From a virus (lineage: Duplodnaviria > Heunggongvirae > Uroviricota > Caudoviricetes), in IMG/VR virus record IMGVR_UViG_2698536450_000022: DNA of 8,985 bases; one strand, 5' to 3'. The stretch's first letter is position 1; the number at the start of each line of letters is the position of its first letter. The notes below the pieces were generated by a model. The model had not been told where the DNA came from. It ran no database searches and saw only the letters and a program-made list of their open reading frames with translations. Made by a program: the position numbers and the translations under genes. Positions 1 through 8,985 of this stretch are shown piece after piece.

Positions 1-981
1 TTATAACGTCACTCCGCCTTTTAGTGGATTCAGAGCGACGGCATTTTGCAGATAGTCAGGCGCAAGGTGCGCATAGGCCATCGTCTGCTGAATGCTCGCA
101 TGTCCCAGAATCTGTTGCAGTGCGATTATATTGCCCCCATTCATCATGAAATGGCTTGCGAATGTATGCCGCAGGATGTGGGTTGCCTGATTGGGTGGTA
201 TATCAGGTTTCACTCTGCGTAAAATCCCGCAAAATTTCTCATAATCAACTTTGAATAATTTGGCGCTGGCCTCCTCTTTAACTTTTTTCTCCAGTTCCTC
301 AGAAATCGGCACGGTTCGCTTTTTACCGTTTTTGGTTTTCAGGAAGGTAACCCTGCAATTTGTAATCTGTGCTGGTTTTAGCGTGGCAACTTCCGTCCAT
401 CTTCCTCCGGTGCTCAGACATAAAAGCGCGACAAGTAAGTCATCACCAGCCAAAACATTTAACAGTTTTTCGATTTCTGCTTTTTCCAGGAACGTCATTT
501 CAGGGTTGGCCTCCGCCAGTGGCGGCAGTCCGTGAATTGGGTGTTGCCCGGAAAATTCATCCAATTGAATTAATTTTGTGAACATGCCGGATAATCGGTA
601 CATGTCACGGTTTATCGTTGCGGCACTGATACCATCACGTAGTCGCATGGAACGATAATCCATCAAAGCCCTTTTGCTCATCCTGCTCACTGGTATATCA
701 CCTATGCCGCTGATGGTTTTGAGTAGATGATTAAACTCTTTTGTTCCATGCTCGTGGTTTTGCCCGTGATATTTCCACCAGATGTCCAGCAACTCACTCA
801 AAGTCCGGCGGTCTGCTCGCTGGCCTCCCCATTCTTTCTGACTGGCATTGGCGATTGTGTATCGCTCAAATGCTAGTGCTTCAGCTTTTCTTTCGAATTT
901 CCTGCGGATGCGTTTTCCGTCGCGACCGCGAGGTCTAATGTCCACTTCATAGCGACCATCATCGAGCTTCTTAATTGCCAT
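1..981 (-). CDS. int: P2-like prophage integrase (tyrosine site-specific recombinase). The ORF is open to 1011, but the preferred start is the internal ATG at 981 (MAIKKLDDGRYEV...), which has a GGAGGG Shine-Dalgarno about 7 nt upstream; the ATG at 1011 has none.
   Basis: Complete minus-strand ORF with stop TAA at 1-3. The C-terminus carries the tyrosine recombinase catalytic signature (HILRHTFASHF ... LGHASIQQTMAYAH, i.e. H-x-x-R ... Y). N-terminus MAIKKLDDGRYEVDIRP and the length match P2 Int as recalled from memory. Sits immediately downstream of the C repressor, as in P2. Confidence 0.9.
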   Translation of the reverse strand: MAIKKLDDGRYEVDIRPRGRDGKRIRRKFERKAEALAFERYTIANASQKEWGGQRADRRTLSELLDIWWKYHGQNHEHGTKEFNHLLKTISGIGDIPVSRMSKRALMDYRSMRLRDGISAATINRDMYRLSGMFTKLIQLDEFSGQHPIHGLPPLAEANPEMTFLEKAEIEKLLNVLAGDDLLVALLCLSTGGRWTEVATLKPAQITNCRVTFLKTKNGKKRTVPISEELEKKVKEEASAKLFKVDYEKFCGILRRVKPDIPPNQATHILRHTFASHFMMNGGNIIALQQILGHASIQQTMAYAHLAPDYLQNAVALNPLKGGVTL

Positions 982-1050
982 AAGAAAGCCCTCCGGCGCT
1001 GTATTCACCATCTTGGTAGCAAATGGTGAAAATGTAATCTTTATATAGAG

Positions 1051-1344
1051 TTAGCCAATCCTTTTCGCGGAGTGGTTGGACTCTGTTGACTCTGGCCCAA
1101 TGTGCGCGAGAGCCGGTGCGATTTGTCCTGCGTCCGGCGCGGTTTTATCTGTCATAAGCCATAGAGCATATTTTTGGAATGTGGGATGCATAGTGATTTT
1201 TAGCAAAGCTGTGCCACCGGGTTCAAAGTTTCCTCCTTCATATTTTTTAAGTGTGCTTAGCGGTAACTCTATGATTTCACAGAATTTTGATTGGCTTAGC
1301 CCTTCAGCCTCACGCAAGGCCTTAATCTTTTCGCTTAATTTCAT
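1051..1344 (-). CDS. C: Immunity repressor, P2 C-like (97 aa)
   Basis: 97-aa minus-strand ORF directly upstream of int and divergent from cox. Size is close to P2 C (99 aa) and the C-terminal segment ...YALWLMTDKTAPDAGQIAPALAHIGPE... resembles P2 C as recalled. The N-terminal half has an HTH-like pattern (LSQSKFCEIIELPLSTLKKYE). Confidence 0.8.
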   Translation of the reverse strand: MKLSEKIKALREAEGLSQSKFCEIIELPLSTLKKYEGGNFEPGGTALLKITMHPTFQKYALWLMTDKTAPDAGQIAPALAHIGPESTESNHSAKRIG

Positions 1345-1465
1345 TTGACATGGTGCCTATATAGGGACTAAATTCCCTCAAAACTGGAACCTATATAGGT
1401 TCCATTGATTTGAGAATAAACCAGCATCTAAACGGTTTTGAGTGGTTTAGAAAGGGCTGGATCCT
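1345..1465. promoter_or_regulatory. Lysogeny/lytic switch region (divergent Pc/Pe-type promoters) with operator-like palindromes
   Basis: 121-bp intergenic region between divergent C and cox. TTGACA at 1345-1350 with a candidate -10 TAAATT at 1369-1374 (18-bp spacer) reads rightward toward cox. The 10-bp palindrome CCTATATAGG occurs twice (1356-1365 and 1390-1399); the second copy is embedded in a perfect 18-bp palindrome GGAACCTATATAGGTTCC (1386-1403). A further AGGGA-N6-TCCCT repeat lies at 1363-1378. Confidence 0.55.
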
Positions 1466-1753
1466 ATGAGGGTACCATATATGGACGCTGAAAATTATGT
1501 GATTCAGTATCCGCTTGATGCGGTTCATGTGGATAAATTTGCTGATTTATTAGGGAAGCCAAAGACAGCCGTCAGTGAAATGGTGAAGGCAAATAAATTA
1601 CCAATTATTGAATTGCGTGATCCTTGCAAACCGAAGGCTCGTGCCGGTGAAAAATGGGTTTTCATTCCTGAGTTTAATCGCGCTGTACGTGAGGCGTTTT
1701 ATAACCGACCGGTTGAACAGCGTGATGCATGGCTTTTGTGGATGGGGTTGTGA
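1466..1753 (+). CDS. cox: Cox-like excisionase / transcriptional repressor of the lysogenic promoter (95 aa)
   Basis: First gene of the rightward operon, divergent from C, as in P2. Size is close to P2 Cox (91 aa). The pattern ...KLPIIEL.DP....AGEKWVFIPEFN......RD.WLLWMGL matches what I recall of P2 Cox. Confidence 0.75.
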   Translation: MRVPYMDAENYVIQYPLDAVHVDKFADLLGKPKTAVSEMVKANKLPIIELRDPCKPKARAGEKWVFIPEFNRAVREAFYNRPVEQRDAWLLWMGL

Positions 1754-1755
1754 TT

Positions 1756-1926
1756 ATGAATGAGCCGCGTTGTATTGCTCAGTTATTGCGTAACGAAAGC
1801 CCCAGGGCGATTGACTTCACCATCACCCACGGTAAGGGGCGTAAGGGAATCATTATCCGCACCAAAAAACAGAGTCCGTTAAAAAAGGCTCTGACCTTTC
1901 TGAAAAGCCGGAGGGTATGGAAATGA
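1756..1926 (+). CDS. Small hypothetical protein at the P2 orf78 position (56 aa from the ATG at 1756; the ORF is open from 1729)
   Basis: ORF between cox and B. The ATG at 1756 lies 2 nt after the cox stop (1751-1753). The protein is basic (MNEPRCIAQLLRNESPRAIDFTITHGKGRKGIIIRTKKQ...). Its stop overlaps the B start (ATGA at 1923-1926). Confidence 0.45.
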   Translation: MNEPRCIAQLLRNESPRAIDFTITHGKGRKGIIIRTKKQSPLKKALTFLKSRRVWK

Positions 1927-2423
1927 CAGTGATGACGCTCAATCTCGTTGAAAAACAGCCAGCAGCTATGCGCCGGATAATTGGCAAGCATCTTGCCGTC
2001 CCTCGCTGGCAGGATACATGTGATTATTATAATCAGATGATGGAGCGCGAACGGCTAACGGTTTGCTTTCATGCACAGTTAAAACAGCGTCACGCAACGA
2101 TGCGTTTTGAAGAAATGAACGACGTCGAACGTGAACGACTGGTTTGTGCAATTGATGAATTGCGTGGCGCATTCTCAAAACGCCGTCAGGTCGGCGCAAG
2201 TGAGTATGCATATATTAGTTTTTTAACAGTCAGTCAGCGTCGTACTTTATTTATGCATGCGGGATTGACAGAAAAAGAATTCAATCAGCCGTACTGGCGA
2301 ATTAATGAAGAATCATGTTACTGGCGTGATGCTTTATTCCGTGCATTACGTGAATTATTCAGTCTGTTTGAGTATGCACCGACAATTCTGACGTCGGTAA
2401 AACCAGAGCAATATCTGCATTAA
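1923..2423 (+). CDS. B: Replication protein B-like (P2 B is a DnaB helicase loader); 166 aa from the ATG at 1923, ORF open from the ATG at 1917
   Basis: Position after cox/orf78 matches P2 gene order. GGAGGG at 1910-1915 gives a 7-nt spacer to the ATG at 1923 but only 1 nt to the ATG at 1917. A length of 166 aa from 1923 equals P2 B as recalled. Confidence 0.75.
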   Translation: MTVMTLNLVEKQPAAMRRIIGKHLAVPRWQDTCDYYNQMMERERLTVCFHAQLKQRHATMRFEEMNDVERERLVCAIDELRGAFSKRRQVGASEYAYISFLTVSQRRTLFMHAGLTEKEFNQPYWRINEESCYWRDALFRALRELFSLFEYAPTILTSVKPEQYLH

Positions 2424-2444
2424 ATAATTAACCAGAGTTTTTAA

Positions 2445-2472
2445 CGCACTTAATCGTGCGGGGCTTCTTTTT
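2445..2472 (+). terminator. Weak hairpin plus T-tract downstream of B (candidate attenuator or terminator)
   Basis: CGCAC (2445-2449) / GTGCG (2456-2460) form a 5-bp stem with a 6-nt loop, followed by GGGCTTCTTTTT (2461-2472). The stem is short, so this is tentative. Confidence 0.3.
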
Positions 2473-2486
2473 GCCTGGAGAAAGTC

Positions 2487-2711
2487 ATGCATACAGTTTC
2501 TGAAAATCAGTGCGGTAAATACGCATTACTGCTGCAACAGGCCAGAACCGAAGCACAGGCCGACGCTGCGACGCGCTTTTCTTCTCATCTTGACGCCATG
2601 ATTCGCCACATCACAAAGGCGGAGTTATCCCGCGTGGAGATAGTTGAGCTGCTCAGTCAGGAGTCGGAAAAATTTCACAATATCGGATTGTCTCGCGGGG
2701 AGGTGCTTTGA
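2487..2711 (+). CDS. Small hypothetical protein (74 aa), P2 orf80 position
   Basis: ORF with a GGAGAAAG Shine-Dalgarno 5-6 nt upstream of the ATG at 2487. Its stop TGA (2709-2711) overlaps the next start (TGATG). Confidence 0.6.
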
Positions 2712-3013
2712 TGTCCTGTTCTCGTTCGGTTGTATTACTGAATAACGCCTTAAAAATCGCCGTTATGAAAAATGGTGATTTGTCTCTTATTCAACTTGGT
2801 ATTGATAAAGAGAAGCGCGAAATAACTGAATCTGTTATCGCGATTTATCAGAGTGAATTAAACCTCCTGTCTGATGTGGTCAATTTACTTGTTAAACGCG
2901 CTGTATTCCACAAGCAAATTTCCTCAGTGGATGAACTGACAAAATTAACGACAGAACTCGCCAGTTATTGCGCTGATGAATTTAAGAAGCTGAACGACAA
3001 AAGGAGCTGGTAA
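2711..3013 (+). CDS. Small hypothetical protein (100 aa), P2 orf81 position
   Basis: The ATG at 2711 overlaps the upstream stop. The track's start at 2708 is a TTG one codon earlier. The stop TAA (3011-3013) overlaps the next ATG (TAATG). Confidence 0.6.
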   Translation: MSCSRSVVLLNNALKIAVMKNGDLSLIQLGIDKEKREITESVIAIYQSELNLLSDVVNLLVKRAVFHKQISSVDELTKLTTELASYCADEFKKLNDKRSW

Positions 3014-3237
3014 TGCCGGACAACGTGGATTTTATTCAGGAACAACAGGCTGAATTACTGGAGCGCCAGATTAACGCGGCAAGGGTAAAACATTGCGGTG
3101 TTTCTGCGCTGGTTTGCGAAGAGTGTGACGCGCCAATACCTGCTGCCCGTCGTGCGGCTTATCCGTCAGCCACGCGTTGTGTTTCCTGTCAGTCAGTCTT
3201 TGAAGCAAAAAACAAACATTACCGGAGAACGGCATGA
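3013..3237 (+). CDS. TraR/DksA-family C4 zinc-finger protein (74 aa), P2 orf82 position
   Basis: Two CxxC pairs with appropriate spacing (LVCEEC ... RCVSCQ) follow an N-terminal acidic/helical segment, typical of TraR/DksA-type small zinc fingers. Translationally coupled on both sides. Confidence 0.7.
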   Translation: MPDNVDFIQEQQAELLERQINAARVKHCGVSALVCEECDAPIPAARRAAYPSATRCVSCQSVFEAKNKHYRRTA

Positions 3238-3509
3238 GTATTCGTATTGAAATTGGCGAACGTTATGTCGTTACCAGTGACAGCTTTCAGTTTATTCTCC
3301 ACGAGAAAAAGAGAGCGGAAAGCGGTAAAAACGCCGGTCAGGAATGGCTGGCGGTGGTTGGTTATTACCCGAAATTAGGCCAGCTCGTTTCCGGCCTGAT
3401 GCATCACGATATTCTGACCGGAAGCGCAAAATCTTTTGCTGATTTAAACGCGCAGGTTGAGCAACTCAGCAAGCGTTGTTCAGAGGCTTTTGGCTCATAT
3501 GGCCGTTAA
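3234..3509 (+). CDS. Small hypothetical protein (91 aa), P2 orf83 position
   Basis: ATGA overlap with the upstream gene at 3234-3237. The 3' end overlaps the A start by 11 nt. No recognisable catalytic motif. Confidence 0.6.
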   Translation: MSIRIEIGERYVVTSDSFQFILHEKKRAESGKNAGQEWLAVVGYYPKLGQLVSGLMHHDILTGSAKSFADLNAQVEQLSKRCSEAFGSYGR

Positions 3510-5772
3510 AGCCTCCGGGCGTTTTGTCCCTCCGTCAGCATTTACCGCAGGCACCGGTAAGGCGTTTACCGGTGCTTATGCATGGAACGCGCCACGCGAG
3601 GCTGTCGGGCGCGAAAGACCTCTTACACGTGACGAGATGCGTCAGGTGCAAGGTGTTTTATCCACGATTAACCGCCTGCCTTATTTTTTGCGCTCGCTGT
3701 TTACTTCACGCTATGACTACATCCGGCGCAATAAAAGCCCGGTGCACGGGTTTTATTTCCTCACATCTACTTTTCAGCGTCGTTTATGGCCGCGCATTGA
3801 GCGTGTGAATCAGCGCCATGAAATGAACACCGACGCGTCGTTGCTGTTTCTGGCAGAGCGTGACCACTATGCGCGCCTGCCGGGAATGAATGACAAGGAG
3901 CTGAAAAAGTTTGCCGCCCGTATCTCATCGCAGCTTTTCATGATGTATGAGGAACTCTGCGATGCATGGGTTGATGCGCATGGTGAAAAAGAATCGCTGT
4001 TTACGGATGAGGCGCAGGCTCACCTGTATGGTCATGTTGCTGGCGCTGCACGTGCTTTCAATATTTCCCCGCTCTACTGGAAAAAATACCGTAAAGGACA
4101 GATGACCACGAGGCAGGCATATTCTGCCATTGCCCGCCTGTTTAACGATGAGTGGTGGACTCATCAGCTTAAAGGCCAGCGTATGCGCTGGCATGAGGCG
4201 TTACTGATAGCTGTCGGGGAGGTCAATAAAGACCGTTCTCCTTATGCCAGTAAACACGCCATTCGTGATGTGCGTGCGCGCCGCCAGGCAAATCTGGAAT
4301 TTCTTAAATCGTGTGACCTTGAAAACAGGGAAACCGGCGAGCGCATCGACCTTATCAGTAAGGTGATGGGCAGTATTTCTAATCCTGAAATTCGCCGGAT
4401 GGAGCTGATGAACACCATTGCCGGTATTGAGCGTTACGCCGCCGCAGAGGGTGATGTGGGGATGTTTATCACGCTGACCGCGCCGTCAAAGTATCACCCG
4501 ACACGTCAGGTCGGAAAAGGCGAAAGTAAAACCGTTCAGCTTAATCACGGCTGGAACGATGAGGCATTTAATCCAAAGGATGCGCAGCGTTATCTCTGCC
4601 GTATCTGGAGCCTGATGCGCACGGCATTCAAGGATAATGATTTACAGGTCTACGGTTTGCGAGTCGTCGAGCCACACCACGACGGAACGCCGCACTGGCA
4701 TATGATGCTTTTTTGTCATCCACGCCAGCGTAACCAGATTATCGAAATCATGCGTCGCTATGCGCTCAAAGAGGATGGCGACGAAAGAGGAGCCGCGCGA
4801 AACCGTTTTCAGGCAAAACACCTTAACCGGGGCGGTGCTGCGGGATATATCGCGAAATACATTTCAAAAAACATCGACGGCTATGCACTGGATGGTCAGC
4901 TCGATAACGACACCGGCAGGCCGCTGAAAGACACTGCAGCGGCTGTTACCGCATGGGCGTCAACGTGGCGCATTCCGCAATTTAAAACGGTTGGCCTGCC
5001 GACAATGGGGGCTTACCGTGAACTACGCAAATTGCCTCGCGGCGTCAGCATTGCTGATGAGTTTGACGAGCGCGTCGAGGCTGCACGCGCCGCCGCAGAC
5101 AGTGGTGATTTTGCGCTGTATATCAGCGCGCAGGGCGGGGCAAATGTCCCGCGCGATTGTCAGACTGTCAGGGTCGCCCGTAGTCTGTCGGATGACGTTA
5201 ACGAGTACGAGGAAGAAGTCGAGAGAGTGGTCGGCATTTACGCGCCGCATCTCGGCGCGCGTCATATTCATATCACCAGAACGACGGACTGGCGCATTGT
5301 GCCGAAAGTTCCGGTCGTTGAGCCTTTGACTTTAAAAAGCGGCATCGCCGCGCCTCGGAGTCCTGTCAATAACTGTGGAAAACTCACCGGTGGTGATACT
5401 TCGTTACCGGCTCCCACACCTTCTGAGCACGCCGCAGCAGTGCTTAATCTGGTTGATGACGGTGTTATCGAATGGAGTGACCCGGAGGTCGTGAGGGCGC
5501 TCAGAGGTGCATTAAAACACGGTCGGAGAACGCCAAGTCGTCAGCAAAGAAACGGAAGCCCGTTAAAACCACATGAAATTGCACCATCGGCCAGACTGAC
5601 CCGGTCGGAAAGAATGCAAATTACCCGTATCCGCGTTGACCTTGCTCAGAACGGTATCAGGCCGCAGCGATGGGAGCTTGAGGCGCTGGCGCGTGGCGCG
5701 ACCGTAAATTATGATGGGAAAACGTTTTCATATCCGATTTCTGATGGTTGGGCGGGATTTGAAACAAACTAA
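3499..5772 (+). CDS. A: Rolling-circle replication initiator (P2 gpA-type HUH replication endonuclease); 757 aa from the ATG at 3499, ORF open from the TTG at 3457
   Basis: HUH-type metal-binding motif ...HHDGTPHWHMMLF (HH at 4675-4680, PHWH at 4690-4701). Paired active-site tyrosines in GYIAKYISKNIDGY (Y codons at 4846-4848 and 4858-4860). Size and position after B and the small ORFs match P2 gene A (761 aa as recalled). The ATG at 3499 gives MAVKASGRFVP... Confidence 0.9.
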   Translation: MAVKASGRFVPPSAFTAGTGKAFTGAYAWNAPREAVGRERPLTRDEMRQVQGVLSTINRLPYFLRSLFTSRYDYIRRNKSPVHGFYFLTSTFQRRLWPRIERVNQRHEMNTDASLLFLAERDHYARLPGMNDKELKKFAARISSQLFMMYEELCDAWVDAHGEKESLFTDEAQAHLYGHVAGAARAFNISPLYWKKYRKGQMTTRQAYSAIARLFNDEWWTHQLKGQRMRWHEALLIAVGEVNKDRSPYASKHAIRDVRARRQANLEFLKSCDLENRETGERIDLISKVMGSISNPEIRRMELMNTIAGIERYAAAEGDVGMFITLTAPSKYHPTRQVGKGESKTVQLNHGWNDEAFNPKDAQRYLCRIWSLMRTAFKDNDLQVYGLRVVEPHHDGTPHWHMMLFCHPRQRNQIIEIMRRYALKEDGDERGAARNRFQAKHLNRGGAAGYIAKYISKNIDGYALDGQLDNDTGRPLKDTAAAVTAWASTWRIPQFKTVGLPTMGAYRELRKLPRGVSIADEFDERVEAARAAADSGDFALYISAQGGANVPRDCQTVRVARSLSDDVNEYEEEVERVVGIYAPHLGARHIHITRTTDWRIVPKVPVVEPLTLKSGIAAPRSPVNNCGKLTGGDTSLPAPTPSEHAAAVLNLVDDGVIEWSDPEVVRALRGALKHGRRTPSRQQRNGSPLKPHEIAPSARLTRSERMQITRIRVDLAQNGIRPQRWELEALARGATVNYDGKTFSYPISDGWAGFETN

Positions 5773-5781
5773 CAATAATGA

Positions 5782-5883
5782 TTGACATGCTTGATTTTGT
5801 ATTCACAAATCAAGCATCAAGTAAACATCGATGATGAGAAAGAACAATGCTACAATCCCCACAGCATTAGAAGGAGGTTTATC
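5782..5883 (+). promoter_or_regulatory. Promoter/operator region of the methyltransferase gene
   Basis: TTGACA at 5782-5787. Perfect 9-bp inverted repeat GCTTGATTT (5789-5797) / AAATCAAGC (5807-5815) with a 9-bp spacer. Extended -10 TGcTACAAT at 5848-5856. Shine-Dalgarno AAGGAGG at 5871-5877, 6 nt before the TTG at 5884. Confidence 0.55.
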
Positions 5884-6933
5884 TTGATTAAGGTTGTTGA
5901 TTTATTCTGTGGCGCGGGTGGCTTGACTCACGGTCTTCAGAAGTCGGGGCTTAATGTAGTTGCAGGTTATGATATAGATGCAGCCTGTCGATTTGCCTAT
6001 GAGACAAATAATAAATCACTCTTTGTCCAGAAAAGTGTTACAGACATTGAGGACGGCGAATTAGTTAAATATTTCGAAGGAGCGAAGGTTCGAGTTTTGG
6101 CTGGTTGTGCCCCATGCCAACCTTTTTCAAGCTATACCAATAGTGCTAAATTAGGGGTAGTACGTTCAAAAGATAAAAGATGGTCTTTGCTTTATAGCTT
6201 TGCTAAGCAAATTAAATTTGCAAAGCCAGATATTATTACAATGGAAAACGTTCCCCGAGTGGTGAATCATAAGGTTTTTAAGGACTTCATTAAGTCTCTT
6301 AAAAATGATGGCTATTTTGTTTGGTATGGGGTGGTGTTTTGTCCAGACTATGGAATGGCACAAAGTCGTTCAAGATTAGTGTTATTGGCATCAAAATATG
6401 GAGAAATAGAAATAATTCCACCAACTCATGAGAAGAATGATTATAAAACGGTGCGAGATATAATCGGTAATCTTCCTGAAATTAGTGCCGGTGCTGTTCA
6501 CGCTGGAGATAAACTACATCGCTCTGCATCATTATCTGATATTAATATAAAAAGAATAATGGCATCAAAACCTGGTGGAACATGGCGTGATTGGCCAGAA
6601 GAGCTAAGAGCAAAATGTCATACAAAAGAAAGTGGTTCTACATATACTGCTGTATATGGGAGAATGTGTTGGGATAAACTTGGACCGACAATTACAACTC
6701 AATGTATTGGATATGGGAATGGACGCTTTGGGCACCCTGTCCAAAATAGAGCATTAAGTTTAAGAGAGGCTGCGCTATTACAGTCATTCCCAGAAAAGTA
6801 TGAGTTTTGGCCTGATGATGTAAAAATTGAAATGAGAACAGTTGCGCGTTTAATAGGTAATGCTGTTCCTGTTAGGCTTGGTGAGGTCGTAGGTGAAACT
6901 ATTTTAAAACATTTGTCAGAAATGAATATTTAA
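5884..6933 (+). CDS. DNA (cytosine-5)-methyltransferase, Dcm/C5-MTase family; about 349 aa from the TTG start at 5884 (ORF open from the ATG at 5782, but that extension lacks an RBS and looks non-coding)
   Basis: Canonical C5-MTase motifs in order: motif I DLFCGAGG (5899-5922), catalytic motif IV GCAPCQPFSSY (PCQ at 6112-6120), motif VI ENV (6244-6252), motif VIII QSRSRLVLL, and C-terminal motifs IX/X ...RLIGNAVPVRLGEVVGE. A variable region between VIII and IX is consistent with a target-recognition domain. Confidence 0.9.
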   Translation: MIKVVDLFCGAGGLTHGLQKSGLNVVAGYDIDAACRFAYETNNKSLFVQKSVTDIEDGELVKYFEGAKVRVLAGCAPCQPFSSYTNSAKLGVVRSKDKRWSLLYSFAKQIKFAKPDIITMENVPRVVNHKVFKDFIKSLKNDGYFVWYGVVFCPDYGMAQSRSRLVLLASKYGEIEIIPPTHEKNDYKTVRDIIGNLPEISAGAVHAGDKLHRSASLSDINIKRIMASKPGGTWRDWPEELRAKCHTKESGSTYTAVYGRMCWDKLGPTITTQCIGYGNGRFGHPVQNRALSLREAALLQSFPEKYEFWPDDVKIEMRTVARLIGNAVPVRLGEVVGETILKHLSEMNI

Positions 6934-6945
6934 AACTTATGTCAT

Positions 6946-6969
6946 CCCCCCTGTCAAAAAACAGGGGGG
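6946..6969. terminator. GC-rich hairpin between the convergent methyltransferase and nuclease genes (candidate bidirectional terminator)
   Basis: CCCCCCTGT (6946-6954) pairs with ACAGGGGGG (6961-6969) around a 6-nt loop CAAAAA. It lies 13 nt after the MTase stop and 7 nt before the minus-strand stop. No strong U-tract on either side, so intrinsic termination is uncertain. Confidence 0.4.
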
Positions 6970-6975
6970 GTATAA

Positions 6976-8985
6976 TTAGATTCCCTCAACTATTTTCATA
7001 ATTCTAGCTGCATCATTCTTTTTGTCTTGATATTCAGCATAGGCTTGTTTTGATTGCACGATTAGGTCATTATATGTCAATATTTTTCCATTGATAGAAA
7101 GTAATTGCATATTTATAAAGTGTTGGTTCTCTTGTAAATATCCAGAGCCAACCAGGAATATTACTTCTATATGCGGTATATTTCCACCTGGGCAATTTTT
7201 AGGGTTATTGGAGAACCATTGTGTCGTTGCCTGTACATATTTATTACCTTGTGCGACTAGGTTCATTATATCTGGGTGCACTTTAGGTCGTTTCATCTCA
7301 ATAATTACATGCTTGCCAGAAACGGTTTTGAAAGCGATATCAATACGAGCACCGCTAGCAGCATCAGGGTTTATCTGTTTTAGTTCCTTGGTCAATGTTT
7401 GCTCCATAACAGATGTGCCTGTGACTCTTTCCCATGAAGGATCCAATAACCATAAATGATCATATAAATACATTTGTACAGCTCTTTCAAGCTGATTTTC
7501 ATCAGTTATTTTTTGGAATTTTTCAATTACTTTAAGGCGTTGCGAAGTAATTTCATAAAACATGCTTGCTTCAATGTCATTGACAGATGCAAATACATCT
7601 TTAAAATTTTCTGATTGAAGGTTGCTTATTTTATCTAATGCATCAAGGTTGTCTTGAATTCTAAGTCTTTCAAAGGCTAATACCGTATTTTTTAATACGG
7701 TTTTTCTTGCTGCTTTTTGTTCTTCCTCATTACCAGAAAAACGGAATGTGTTTACTCGTCCAATTAACTTTTCGGCACTTTCTCTCTCATGTTTTTTGAG
7801 AGAATTCAGCCATTCACTTACTATTGGAGTATTGCTTTTAACTTCATTTACTCCTTTTTCGCGTCTCCATTTATCCCAATCTTTATCGATTAGTTGTAGC
7901 GTTCTTTCCAGAAAACCTTTAAGTACAGGGTATCTTGGATCATTCTGTTGTAGTTTTTGACGAGAAGATGTTGCCATATCAGGCTTTTCGTTATCATCTA
8001 GAAAATCGGCGACTATTTCACCGACCAGATAATTGGTGAATACTTTAGCACTTCCAAATTCTAATAATATGTCCTCCTCAAAAACACGTCCGTGAGAGAT
8101 TACAGTAATGCTGTTGTTAGATATTTCAGGGTCTTTCTTTAACTGTGATGGCTTAACTACACTGCCAATGTACCCACTAACTTTTACATCTTTTCCTTCA
8201 AAGGTAATAGTATTTGGTAATATGTTTTTTTGTGTGATGTTTGTGCAGGATTTTATCCTTTCAGGGTCGGATTCGCCAAATTCCCAAATGAACTCGAGAT
8301 CTGAAAGGAAATCTCTATCTGCCGGTGTAATATCGGTCCCATTAATTTTAACTGTAAAGTTATGGTTGGGGCCAATAATGCTAAATCGACGAGCTATTCG
8401 CTTTCTGAGGTAAGTTTGAGTCCTATCAATGGCTTTTTTTAGTTCAAATAATTTAATTGTAGTGCCGTAAGCAAGATTTTCGGGTATTTCAAGGGAGTCA
8501 GCAATATAGTTTTTTGATTCTTTGATACTTTGCTGTAAATCTTTGACATCTACCTCAAAGGCCTGAGGCTGTTCCCCCTTTTTGTACGAATAAACTTGGA
8601 TTTTATTGGCAAGTGAAAACATGGCAAGCTTACCAATACCTTTTCTGCCCATAACTTGACGTTTTAGATGATCGCTTTTGGCTCTTCCATGTTCCCTGCG
8701 AGCATAACCGACTTTTAGGAACTTATTAATAATGTCATCTTTAGACATGCCATGACCATCATCTTTAATGATGACCTCTCCTTTCTCAACATCAAGTGTA
8801 ATTTCTACATTTTGAGCATCTGCATCCCATGCATTTGATATAATCTCAGTTAGTACCGCGGGAGTATTGGAATAGAGACTCATCCCTAGGGAAGGTGCGA
8901 ATAAGCAGGTCATTTCTTCCCAAGCTGACTCGCTGATTAAAATTTCGCGGATCTGGGCCGATTTTTTTCCCGTAAACACATCGAA
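6976..8985 (-). CDS. GHKL-family ATPase (MORC/MutL/Hsp90-like Bergerat fold) fused to a C-terminal PD-(D/E)xK nuclease domain; putative ATP-dependent restriction/defence nuclease. 5' end is incomplete: the frame is open to the window edge.
   Basis: Minus-strand ORF with stop at 6976-6978. GHKL motifs: N-box EIISNAWDA (8821-8847), G1 box DDGHGM (8746-8763), G2 box GRKGIGKLA (8623-8649). C-terminal RIDIAF ... IIEMK gives D547 / E561 / K563 of a PD-(D/E)xK core (7291-7341). The track's start at 8977-8979 is GTG, and the two codons upstream to 8985 (F, D) are in frame with no stop, so the true start is probably beyond the window. Confidence 0.85.
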   Translation of the reverse strand, partial: FDVFTGKKSAQIREILISESAWEEMTCLFAPSLGMSLYSNTPAVLTEIISNAWDADAQNVEITLDVEKGEVIIKDDGHGMSKDDIINKFLKVGYARREHGRAKSDHLKRQVMGRKGIGKLAMFSLANKIQVYSYKKGEQPQAFEVDVKDLQQSIKESKNYIADSLEIPENLAYGTTIKLFELKKAIDRTQTYLRKRIARRFSIIGPNHNFTVKINGTDITPADRDFLSDLEFIWEFGESDPERIKSCTNITQKNILPNTITFEGKDVKVSGYIGSVVKPSQLKKDPEISNNSITVISHGRVFEEDILLEFGSAKVFTNYLVGEIVADFLDDNEKPDMATSSRQKLQQNDPRYPVLKGFLERTLQLIDKDWDKWRREKGVNEVKSNTPIVSEWLNSLKKHERESAEKLIGRVNTFRFSGNEEEQKAARKTVLKNTVLAFERLRIQDNLDALDKISNLQSENFKDVFASVNDIEASMFYEITSQRLKVIEKFQKITDENQLERAVQMYLYDHLWLLDPSWERVTGTSVMEQTLTKELKQINPDAASGARIDIAFKTVSGKHVIIEMKRPKVHPDIMNLVAQGNKYVQATTQWFSNNPKNCPGGNIPHIEVIFLVGSGYLQENQHFINMQLLSINGKILTYNDLIVQSKQAYAEYQDKKNDAARIMKIVEGI

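Follow-up and report, generated by a model that had tools for sequence, protein, structure and literature searches.

A probable BbrUII/HgiDII-family restriction gene of paraMORC3 architecture, interrupted by ISKpn26, in the cargo of a P2-like prophage

The fusion of a GHKL ATPase domain, a transducer domain and a nuclease in one protein has been known since 2008, and a relative with this architecture was functionally validated in 2025. According to Orlowski and Bujnicki (2008), R.HgiDII, which is listed under Type II, subtype P, consists of a GHKL N-terminal domain joined to an unassigned C-terminal domain; these authors also noted other GHKL-containing restriction endonucleases, one of them with a PD-(D/E)xK C terminus (PMC2441816). 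Iyer, Abhiman and Aravind (2008) described the paraMORC3 proteins, which combine GHKL and S5 domains with an RE-fold nuclease carrying E-D-ExK motifs, and which are prevalent in proteobacteria and found in restriction–modification (R–M) contexts; they noted that many of the genes stand alone. The authors suggested that these proteins manipulate DNA in an ATP-driven way, and reported a MORC-specific signature motif that sets MORCs apart from paraMORCs (PMC2292703). In 2023, Gu et al. described Shedu homologues with HATPase_c_3 and an Hsp90/MORC-like middle domain, which make up Type 1D of the class with enzymatic N termini (PMC10441436). Last, Adams et al. (2025) reported that Vibrio cholerae VcSduA defends against T1-like phages and X29, that defence is abolished by mutation of either the ATPase (E27A) or the nuclease (K557A), and that the predicted dimer is entwined and clamp-like; 543 homologue hits of VcSduA are listed in the study (PMC12137116). 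For this combination of GHKL domain and nuclease, ATP-gated nuclease action is the hypothesis that published work already favours.

Here we analysed an open reading frame (ORF) at one end of a viral DNA stretch of 8,985 nucleotides, referred to below as the window. A previous sequence-only reading had recognized an ATPase and a nuclease in this ORF and had called the architecture unusual, whereas the same arrangement is known as the HgiDII family (PMC2441816), as paraMORC3 (PMC2292703) and as Shedu type 1D (PMC10441436). We conclude that the ORF is very probably the restriction gene of an R–M pair classified as Type II, belonging to the BbrUII/HgiDII family and having the paraMORC3 architecture, that it is cargo of a P2-like prophage, and that this copy has been hit by an insertion sequence (IS). 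The HgiDII family represents an R–M-linked example of the GHKL-plus-Shedu-type nuclease design.

Family membership and prophage setting

The genes and elements of the window that bear on the analysis are as follows.

1..1011, minus strand: P2-like prophage tyrosine integrase, at the prophage end that adjoins cpxP in related E. coli genomes
3457..5772, plus strand: P2-type replication endonuclease gpA (Pfam Phage_GPA, E 2.8e-124; syntenic prophage annotation)
5884..6933, plus strand: intact C5 cytosine DNA methyltransferase of 349 aa (Pfam DNA_methylase PF00145, E 1.3e-55, full model)
6976..8889, minus strand: remnant of the HgiDII/BbrUII-family restriction gene, comprising native codons 16–652 and the stop codon at 6976–6978
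8890..8985, no strand assigned: terminal 96 bp of ISKpn26 (IS5 family), inserted at CTAG 8886–8889 (codon 15/16)

Over the retained codons, the window protein differs by a single residue (I367S) from WP_001279022.1, the native intact protein of 652 aa, which starts MSDFEIKIDLNVLNHLGMSLYSN. RefSeq names this intact 652-aa protein a BbrUII/HgiDII family restriction enzyme, and the exact protein is named in GenBank too. The NCBIfam model of that name, NF050001 ("BbrUII/HgiDII family restriction enzyme"), is an equivalog model built around characterised restriction enzymes, with a curated cutoff of 550 bits; it matched the window protein with 731.3 bits, covering model positions 12–658 of 659. The ORF was also matched by the PADLOC Type II REase model PDLC03419 (REase_II; E 4.6e-90) and by Pfam HATPase_c_3 (E 2.4e-25), so that the signal stands well clear of chance. 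An exhaustive HMMER search of 50%-identity representatives placed 573 representative clusters in the family at E<=1e-30, most of them 640–690 aa long and aligned end to end. The likeness to R.HgiDII and R.BbrUII thus described comprises the full-length NF050001 match, a GHKL N terminus followed by a long C-terminal part, and an adjacent C5 methyltransferase. Unlike those enzymes, the window copy is truncated by an IS, and the GTCGAC specificity considered below is taken from HgiDII by analogy.

The gene order int-C-cox-B-gpA, then methyltransferase and restriction gene, then gpQ-gpP is found in E. coli prophages and in Escherichia phage PhiR44_1, in which a 99.8% identical gene has been deposited as "ParaMORC3" beside "Dcm". 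Within this order, gpA bounds the gpA–gpQ cargo interval on the left, and the portal gene gpQ lies on the other side in intact relatives. The gpA–gpQ interval is a described defence hotspot of P2-like phages (PMC9122126). The G+C content falls from ~0.5 in the phage backbone to 0.35–0.38 in the cargo, and a scan of positions 5700–8985 for promoters and terminators stayed at background level.

Domain architecture and residue conservation

Monomer structure prediction followed by a fold search, which the sequence-only reading had suggested as a check, was run on the intact protein and recovered GHKL, transducer and PD-(D/E)xK folds. The AlphaFold2 model was built from a 103-sequence alignment and has a mean pLDDT of 80. 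Below, the parts of the protein are listed from the N to the C terminus, with residues in native numbering.

8425..8883, minus strand: GHKL (Bergerat-fold) ATPase domain, residues ~18–170
8821–8847, minus strand: N-box EIISNAWDA, with the catalytic E30 at 8845–8847
8746–8763, minus strand: G1 DxGxG motif, DDGHGM
8623–8649, minus strand: G2 loop, GRKGIGKLA
7936..8424, minus strand: transducer or S5-like middle domain, residues ~171–333
7960–7962, minus strand: invariant R325, in the transducer loop D-M-A-T-S-S-R-Q-K-L-Q
7510..7935, minus strand: all-helical linker, residues ~334–475 (secondary structure and pLDDT of the model)
6979..7509, minus strand: PD-(D/E)xK nuclease domain of the NucS/Shedu/FokI type, residues ~476–652
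7486–7488, minus strand: nuclease residue E483, first core helix
7330–7347, minus strand: RIDIAF motif
7339–7341, minus strand: nuclease residue D532, second strand
7291–7305, minus strand: IIEMK motif
7297–7299, minus strand: nuclease residue E546, third strand
7291–7293, minus strand: nuclease residue K548, third strand
7249–7251, minus strand: nuclease residue Q562, helix after the third strand

All GHKL motifs I–IV are present (E30/N34; D58-G60-G62; G96-K98-G99-G101; and G157-T158, the GT of G3), and the N-box, DDGHGM and GRKGIGKLA segments translate on the minus strand just as the sequence-only reading had placed them. In the fold search of the AlphaFold2 model, the first ~330 residues matched GHKL-plus-transducer modules. 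Hsp90-family N+M domains took the top Foldseek rank (E ~5e-14, ~400 columns), and structural alignments of 270–340 residues were obtained with the GHKL-plus-transducer modules of MORC3, SMCHD1, MORC2, TRAP1 and MutL. Sequence searches of the PDB matched the N-domains of HtpG/Hsp90 and MutL, with no MORC chain among the matches; the MORC likeness here is structural. When the full-length family profile was compared with the PDB, GHKL N-domains were the only matches. The model and these matches, together with the HATPase_c_3 hit, identify the N-terminal domain as a predicted Bergerat-fold ATPase of the MORC/Hsp90/MutL type, which agrees with the MORC/Hsp90-like assignment made earlier. Identity to the modules of MORC3, SMCHD1, Hsp90 and MutL is only 13–17%, and in contrast to those proteins the window protein is without CW, hinge or chaperone C-terminal domains and has a nuclease fused instead.

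For the middle region, the sequence-only reading had offered a transducer or a DNA-recognition domain. Its first option holds for residues ~171–333, modelled as an S5-like transducer mostly with pLDDT >85; the remainder is modelled as a helical linker, with lower confidence around residues 440–460, and the analysis gave no family or fold assignment for linker residues ~334–475. R325 of the transducer is 100% conserved among 160 homologues, and its loop, DMATSSRQKLQ, resembles by eye the catalytic-arginine loop of Hsp90, represented by HtpG DLPLNVSREILQ (D-L-P-L-N-V-S-R-E-I-L-Q). A phmmer search of residues 250–400 against the PDB gave nothing relevant to an Hsp90 link, and when the middle region of the family was compared with E. 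coli HtpG by hhalign, the probability was 0.1. Neither comparison supports equivalence of R325 with the Hsp90 catalytic arginine, which is thus putative; R325 may serve as a gamma-phosphate sensor.

For the C-terminal domain, the sequence profile gave only a marginal Shedu match among PDB sequences (E 0.54), so a fold search was needed for the nuclease assignment, and in that search the fold matched SduA structures. Clustering of the catalytic residues was judged by their secondary-structure placement together with the fold matches. In the AlphaFold2 model, E-D-ExK-Q falls on the canonical alpha-beta-beta-beta-alpha elements (motifs I–IV), and the domain ends as a long C-terminal helix. The C-terminal domain is, on the model, a PD-(D/E)xK nuclease of the NucS/Shedu type, which bears out the nuclease predicted from the sequence. 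The RIDIAF...IIEMK signature is present, but the range given for it, 7291–7341, clipped the first two residues of RIDIAF (7330–7347, minus strand). The distance of about 370 residues had also been misjudged: ~428 residues separate the G2 loop from the D motif downstream of it, and ~380 separate that motif from where the Pfam ATPase domain ends. In R.HgiDII, the C-terminal domain had no fold assignment in 2008; here the domain is given a PD-(D/E)xK (NucS/Shedu type) fold.

Conservation was measured over 160 diverse homologues, down to ~33% identity. On the ATPase side, E30, N34, D37, D58, G60, G62, G96, K98, G99, G101, K102, G157, T158 and R325 are 96–100% conserved, and the same range holds on the nuclease side for E483, D532, E546, K548, Q562 and Y566. 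The residues of ATP binding and hydrolysis (E30, N34, D58, the G1/G2/G3 glycines, K98, K102 and R325) reach 99–100%. The near-invariance of both sets therefore indicates that both activities are under selection.

Such conservation bears on whether the GHKL domain could be vestigial, or a purely structural dimerisation module, in an ordinary ATP-independent Type IIP endonuclease. Type II restriction enzymes by definition require Mg2+ only and no ATP, and the Herpetosiphon enzymes were discovered using standard Mg-only assays, which counts in favour of an ATP-independent enzyme. This reading stays a rival because catalogues place HgiDII among ordinary Type II enzymes of subtype P (PMC2441816). 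However, 99–100% conservation of the ATP-binding and hydrolysis residues across the 160 sequences is unexpected for a vestigial site, and VcSduA, a relative, is inactive when its ATPase carries a point mutation (PMC12137116); we consider an ATP-independent enzyme unlikely. Taken together, the strictly conserved ATPase site and the loss of defence in VcSduA E27A suggest that the HgiDII-family enzyme uses ATP. We found in the literature no ATP-dependence assays for the HgiDII/BbrUII family or for the E. coli protein, and the possible need for ATP in a family that is nominally Type II, apparently never assayed biochemically, is the point to carry forward.

Methyltransferase linkage and a proposed ATP-gated mechanism

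The sequence-only reading made no use of the methyltransferase gene next to the ORF, at 5884–6933. Its product is 100% identical to WP_000598783.1, and the two genes are convergent (tail to tail), with stop codons 42 bp apart. The pairing is seen in all E. coli and phage copies, and a convergent C5 methyltransferase (287–355 aa) adjoins the homologue in 4/4 distant loci with a visible downstream flank.

Gallibacterium, 50% identity: restriction and methyltransferase pair in another P2-like prophage locus
Alcanivorax, 45% identity: chromosomal pair
Two further contigs, 44% identity: one pair each, one of the contigs also encoding Vsr

This count covers readable downstream flanks and so leaves out P0047, a V. 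cholerae homologue at the end of a contig. The conserved tail-to-tail pairing therefore argues for an R–M module over a stand-alone immune nuclease, and the convergent C5 methyltransferase is the putative cognate partner, predicted from gene arrangement and sequence to protect host DNA. With its GHKL, S5 and C-terminal RE-fold nuclease parts and its E483-D532-E546xK548 residues, the protein shows no substantial difference from paraMORC3, except that this branch is consistently linked to a methyltransferase whereas many paraMORC3 genes are stand-alone.

The module was also weighed against a stand-alone Shedu-type nuclease (type 1D, VcSduA-like), in which the GHKL domain would sense infection, cutting would follow no sequence or methylation logic, and the methyltransferase would be an unrelated neighbour. 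Compared by architecture, the window protein shares with VcSduA and Shedu type 1D the three-part layout, the catalytic Glu of the N-box and the Lys of ExK. Pfam SduA_C matched 27 of the 33 homologous C-terminal fragments (best 6.1e-7), and PADLOC called all of the homologous C-terminal fragments REase_II, with scattered weak SduA matches in addition. By contrast, the window protein fell below the Pfam SduA_C and PADLOC SduA thresholds, its own C-terminal fragment had no SduA_C match, and the window protein passes NF050001, the equivalog model of characterised restriction enzymes. VcSduA (GHKL + DUF4263) functions with no methyltransferase partner and is not known to be site-specific, and Shedu (SduA, DUF4263 / PF14082) is a single-gene system, whereas a methyltransferase adjoins the gene here, as it does in the four distant loci and in every E. 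coli and phage copy. A stand-alone Shedu nuclease is thus very unlikely.

Another reading considered was a Type IV-like enzyme, a modification-dependent nuclease directed against foreign DNA that is methylated. Eukaryotic GHKL/MORC proteins are tied to methylation marks, and Iyer et al. discuss epigenetic coupling (PMC2292703), both of which speak for such an enzyme. However, the gene is always paired with a C5 methyltransferase that looks active, next to which a nuclease directed at methylated DNA would be suicidal, and sequence and fold searches of the window protein detected no methyl-reader domain (SRA, EVE, etc.). We rejected this exceedingly improbable reading because of the obligatory methyltransferase partner.

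M.HgiDII, the partner of R.HgiDII, is a GTCGAC m5C methyltransferase, and by analogy the R–M enzyme of the E. coli prophage probably targets GTCGAC. BbrUII was left out of the specificity assignment because the two papers mentioning M.BbrUII conflict (m6A versus m5C). The window contains no GTCGAC against 1.1 expected, a count that says nothing about the target.

Taking the R–M module as the preferred reading, we propose that the enzyme would act as a homodimer. ATP binding would make the two GHKL domains close as a clamp, in which R325 from the transducer would complete the ATPase site, and clamp closure would position both nuclease domains on the unmethylated target, probably GTCGAC. There, E483, D532, E546 and K548 would catalyse Mg-dependent cleavage. 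ATP hydrolysis would then reset the clamp, and the partner C5 methyltransferase would shield host DNA from cleavage. A broader scheme, which we put forward tentatively and hold at somewhat less than even confidence, is that HgiDII-family 'Type II' enzymes are ATP-gated and sequence-specific and form the methyltransferase-linked branch of the GHKL-Shedu/paraMORC3 proteins, with stand-alone Shedu type 1D systems as methyltransferase-losing derivatives. If this is true, a tractable R–M pair would show how a GHKL clamp licenses a Shedu-type nuclease.

ISKpn26 insertion at the 5′ end of the restriction gene

The 5′ end of the ORF is not the native N terminus: positions 8890–8985 are ISKpn26 sequence, which the sequence-only reading missed. 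Among complete E. coli genomes, 24 intact relatives share the same 8.9-kb arrangement at 96–99% identity (megablast), and all 24 alignments end at window position 8890. Alignment with two intact genomes showed identity through ...CCCTAG and unrelated sequence beyond. A 99-base query (8887–8985), consisting of the IS end and 3 flanking bases, matched several E. coli records with 100% identity, and the matching element is annotated as IS5-like ISKpn26 with 1196-bp boundaries. Of 5,426 E. coli genomes, 2,664 carry the IS end, with as many as 43 places in a single genome, and plasmids have it as well; the exact junction between IS and restriction gene was found in none of the 5,426 complete genomes. 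An identical IS copy, read as a proxy, has an in-frame stop at 8986–8988, so the frame that appears open at the edge of the window is IS sequence.

Lost to ISKpn26 are the native promoter, the ribosome-binding site and codons 1–15, which encode the N-terminal strap of the ATPase. In the AlphaFold2 model the lost segment is the N-terminal strand and helix, and it includes D9, N11, L13, N14 and H15, which are invariant in 103 closer homologues. With promoter, ribosome-binding site and 15 residues gone, the restriction gene of the window is therefore probably inactivated and its methyltransferase orphaned. In-frame ATGs are left in the truncated gene at 8913 and at 8883. The transposase gene would be found immediately past the window edge and would share the strand of the restriction gene. 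Because these ATGs remain and the transposase gene reads toward them, low-level expression of an N-terminally altered protein is possible. With its restriction gene disrupted by the IS and its methyltransferase intact, the strain probably methylates its own DNA yet no longer restricts.

Insertion sequence in the restriction gene

The restriction gene, which encodes an HgiDII/BbrUII-family GHKL ATPase–PD-(D/E)xK nuclease, is interrupted in codon 15/16 at CTAG by the end of ISKpn26, an IS5-family element; the CTAG and the IS end together span positions 8886–8985 of the window. The reading frame that stays open to the edge of the window derives from the IS. No complete E. coli genome among the 5,426 searched contains the junction between the IS and the restriction gene. 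Elsewhere in the window lie a prophage arm and the partner methyltransferase:

1–5772, P2-like prophage left arm (integrase, repressor C, Cox, B, small DUF genes and gpA)
5884–6933, + strand, intact C5 cytosine methyltransferase (motifs FCGAGG, PCQ, ENV, QSRSR and GNAVP)

The methyltransferase is identical (100%) to WP_000598783.1 and has probably been orphaned by the IS hit in its partner nuclease gene. For M.BbrUII, the methyltransferase of the family namesake, published accounts conflict on whether the enzyme is of the N6-adenine or the C5-cytosine type (PMC5829577 and PMC5867850).

Prophage context and mobility of the cassette

At the cargo boundary near position 5780, G+C content drops from about 0.5 to 0.35–0.38. 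In related E. coli genomes, cpxP adjoins the integration site of the P2-like prophage. The prophages of two cattle strains, E. coli C10 and C11 (megablast matches H4 and H5), carry an added phosphoadenosine phosphosulfate reductase family gene in the same arm, which accounts for their two-piece alignment to the window.

P2-like prophages of Gallibacterium (loci L005 and L006, 5001–8030) contain the restriction–modification pair at 50% identity, located between a CI-repressor region on one side and tail genes (gpD, gpU) on the other, and adjoined by Abi_alpha or WYL/BRCT genes. This prophage locus differs from that in the window; the cassette evidently moves among prophage hotspots.

Homologues at other loci

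On a metagenomic contig (L011, 455–3900), a Vsr very-short-patch repair endonuclease gene separates the nuclease homologue from its C5 methyltransferase, and an HNH gene lies farther out. A V. cholerae homologue with 61% identity (L004, 4322–6979) immediately follows a CI-type repressor in a prophage with gpA; the gene forms the end of its contig, so that the flank where a methyltransferase partner would lie falls outside. This homologue is distinct from the VcSduA locus in VSP-II, which encodes a Shedu type 1D relative of the same architecture. Last, Yersinia phage P37 (MT239398.1, 247–2109) encodes a full-length homologue with 26% identity, annotated as a hypothetical protein and located at the terminus of the 33-kb phage genome.
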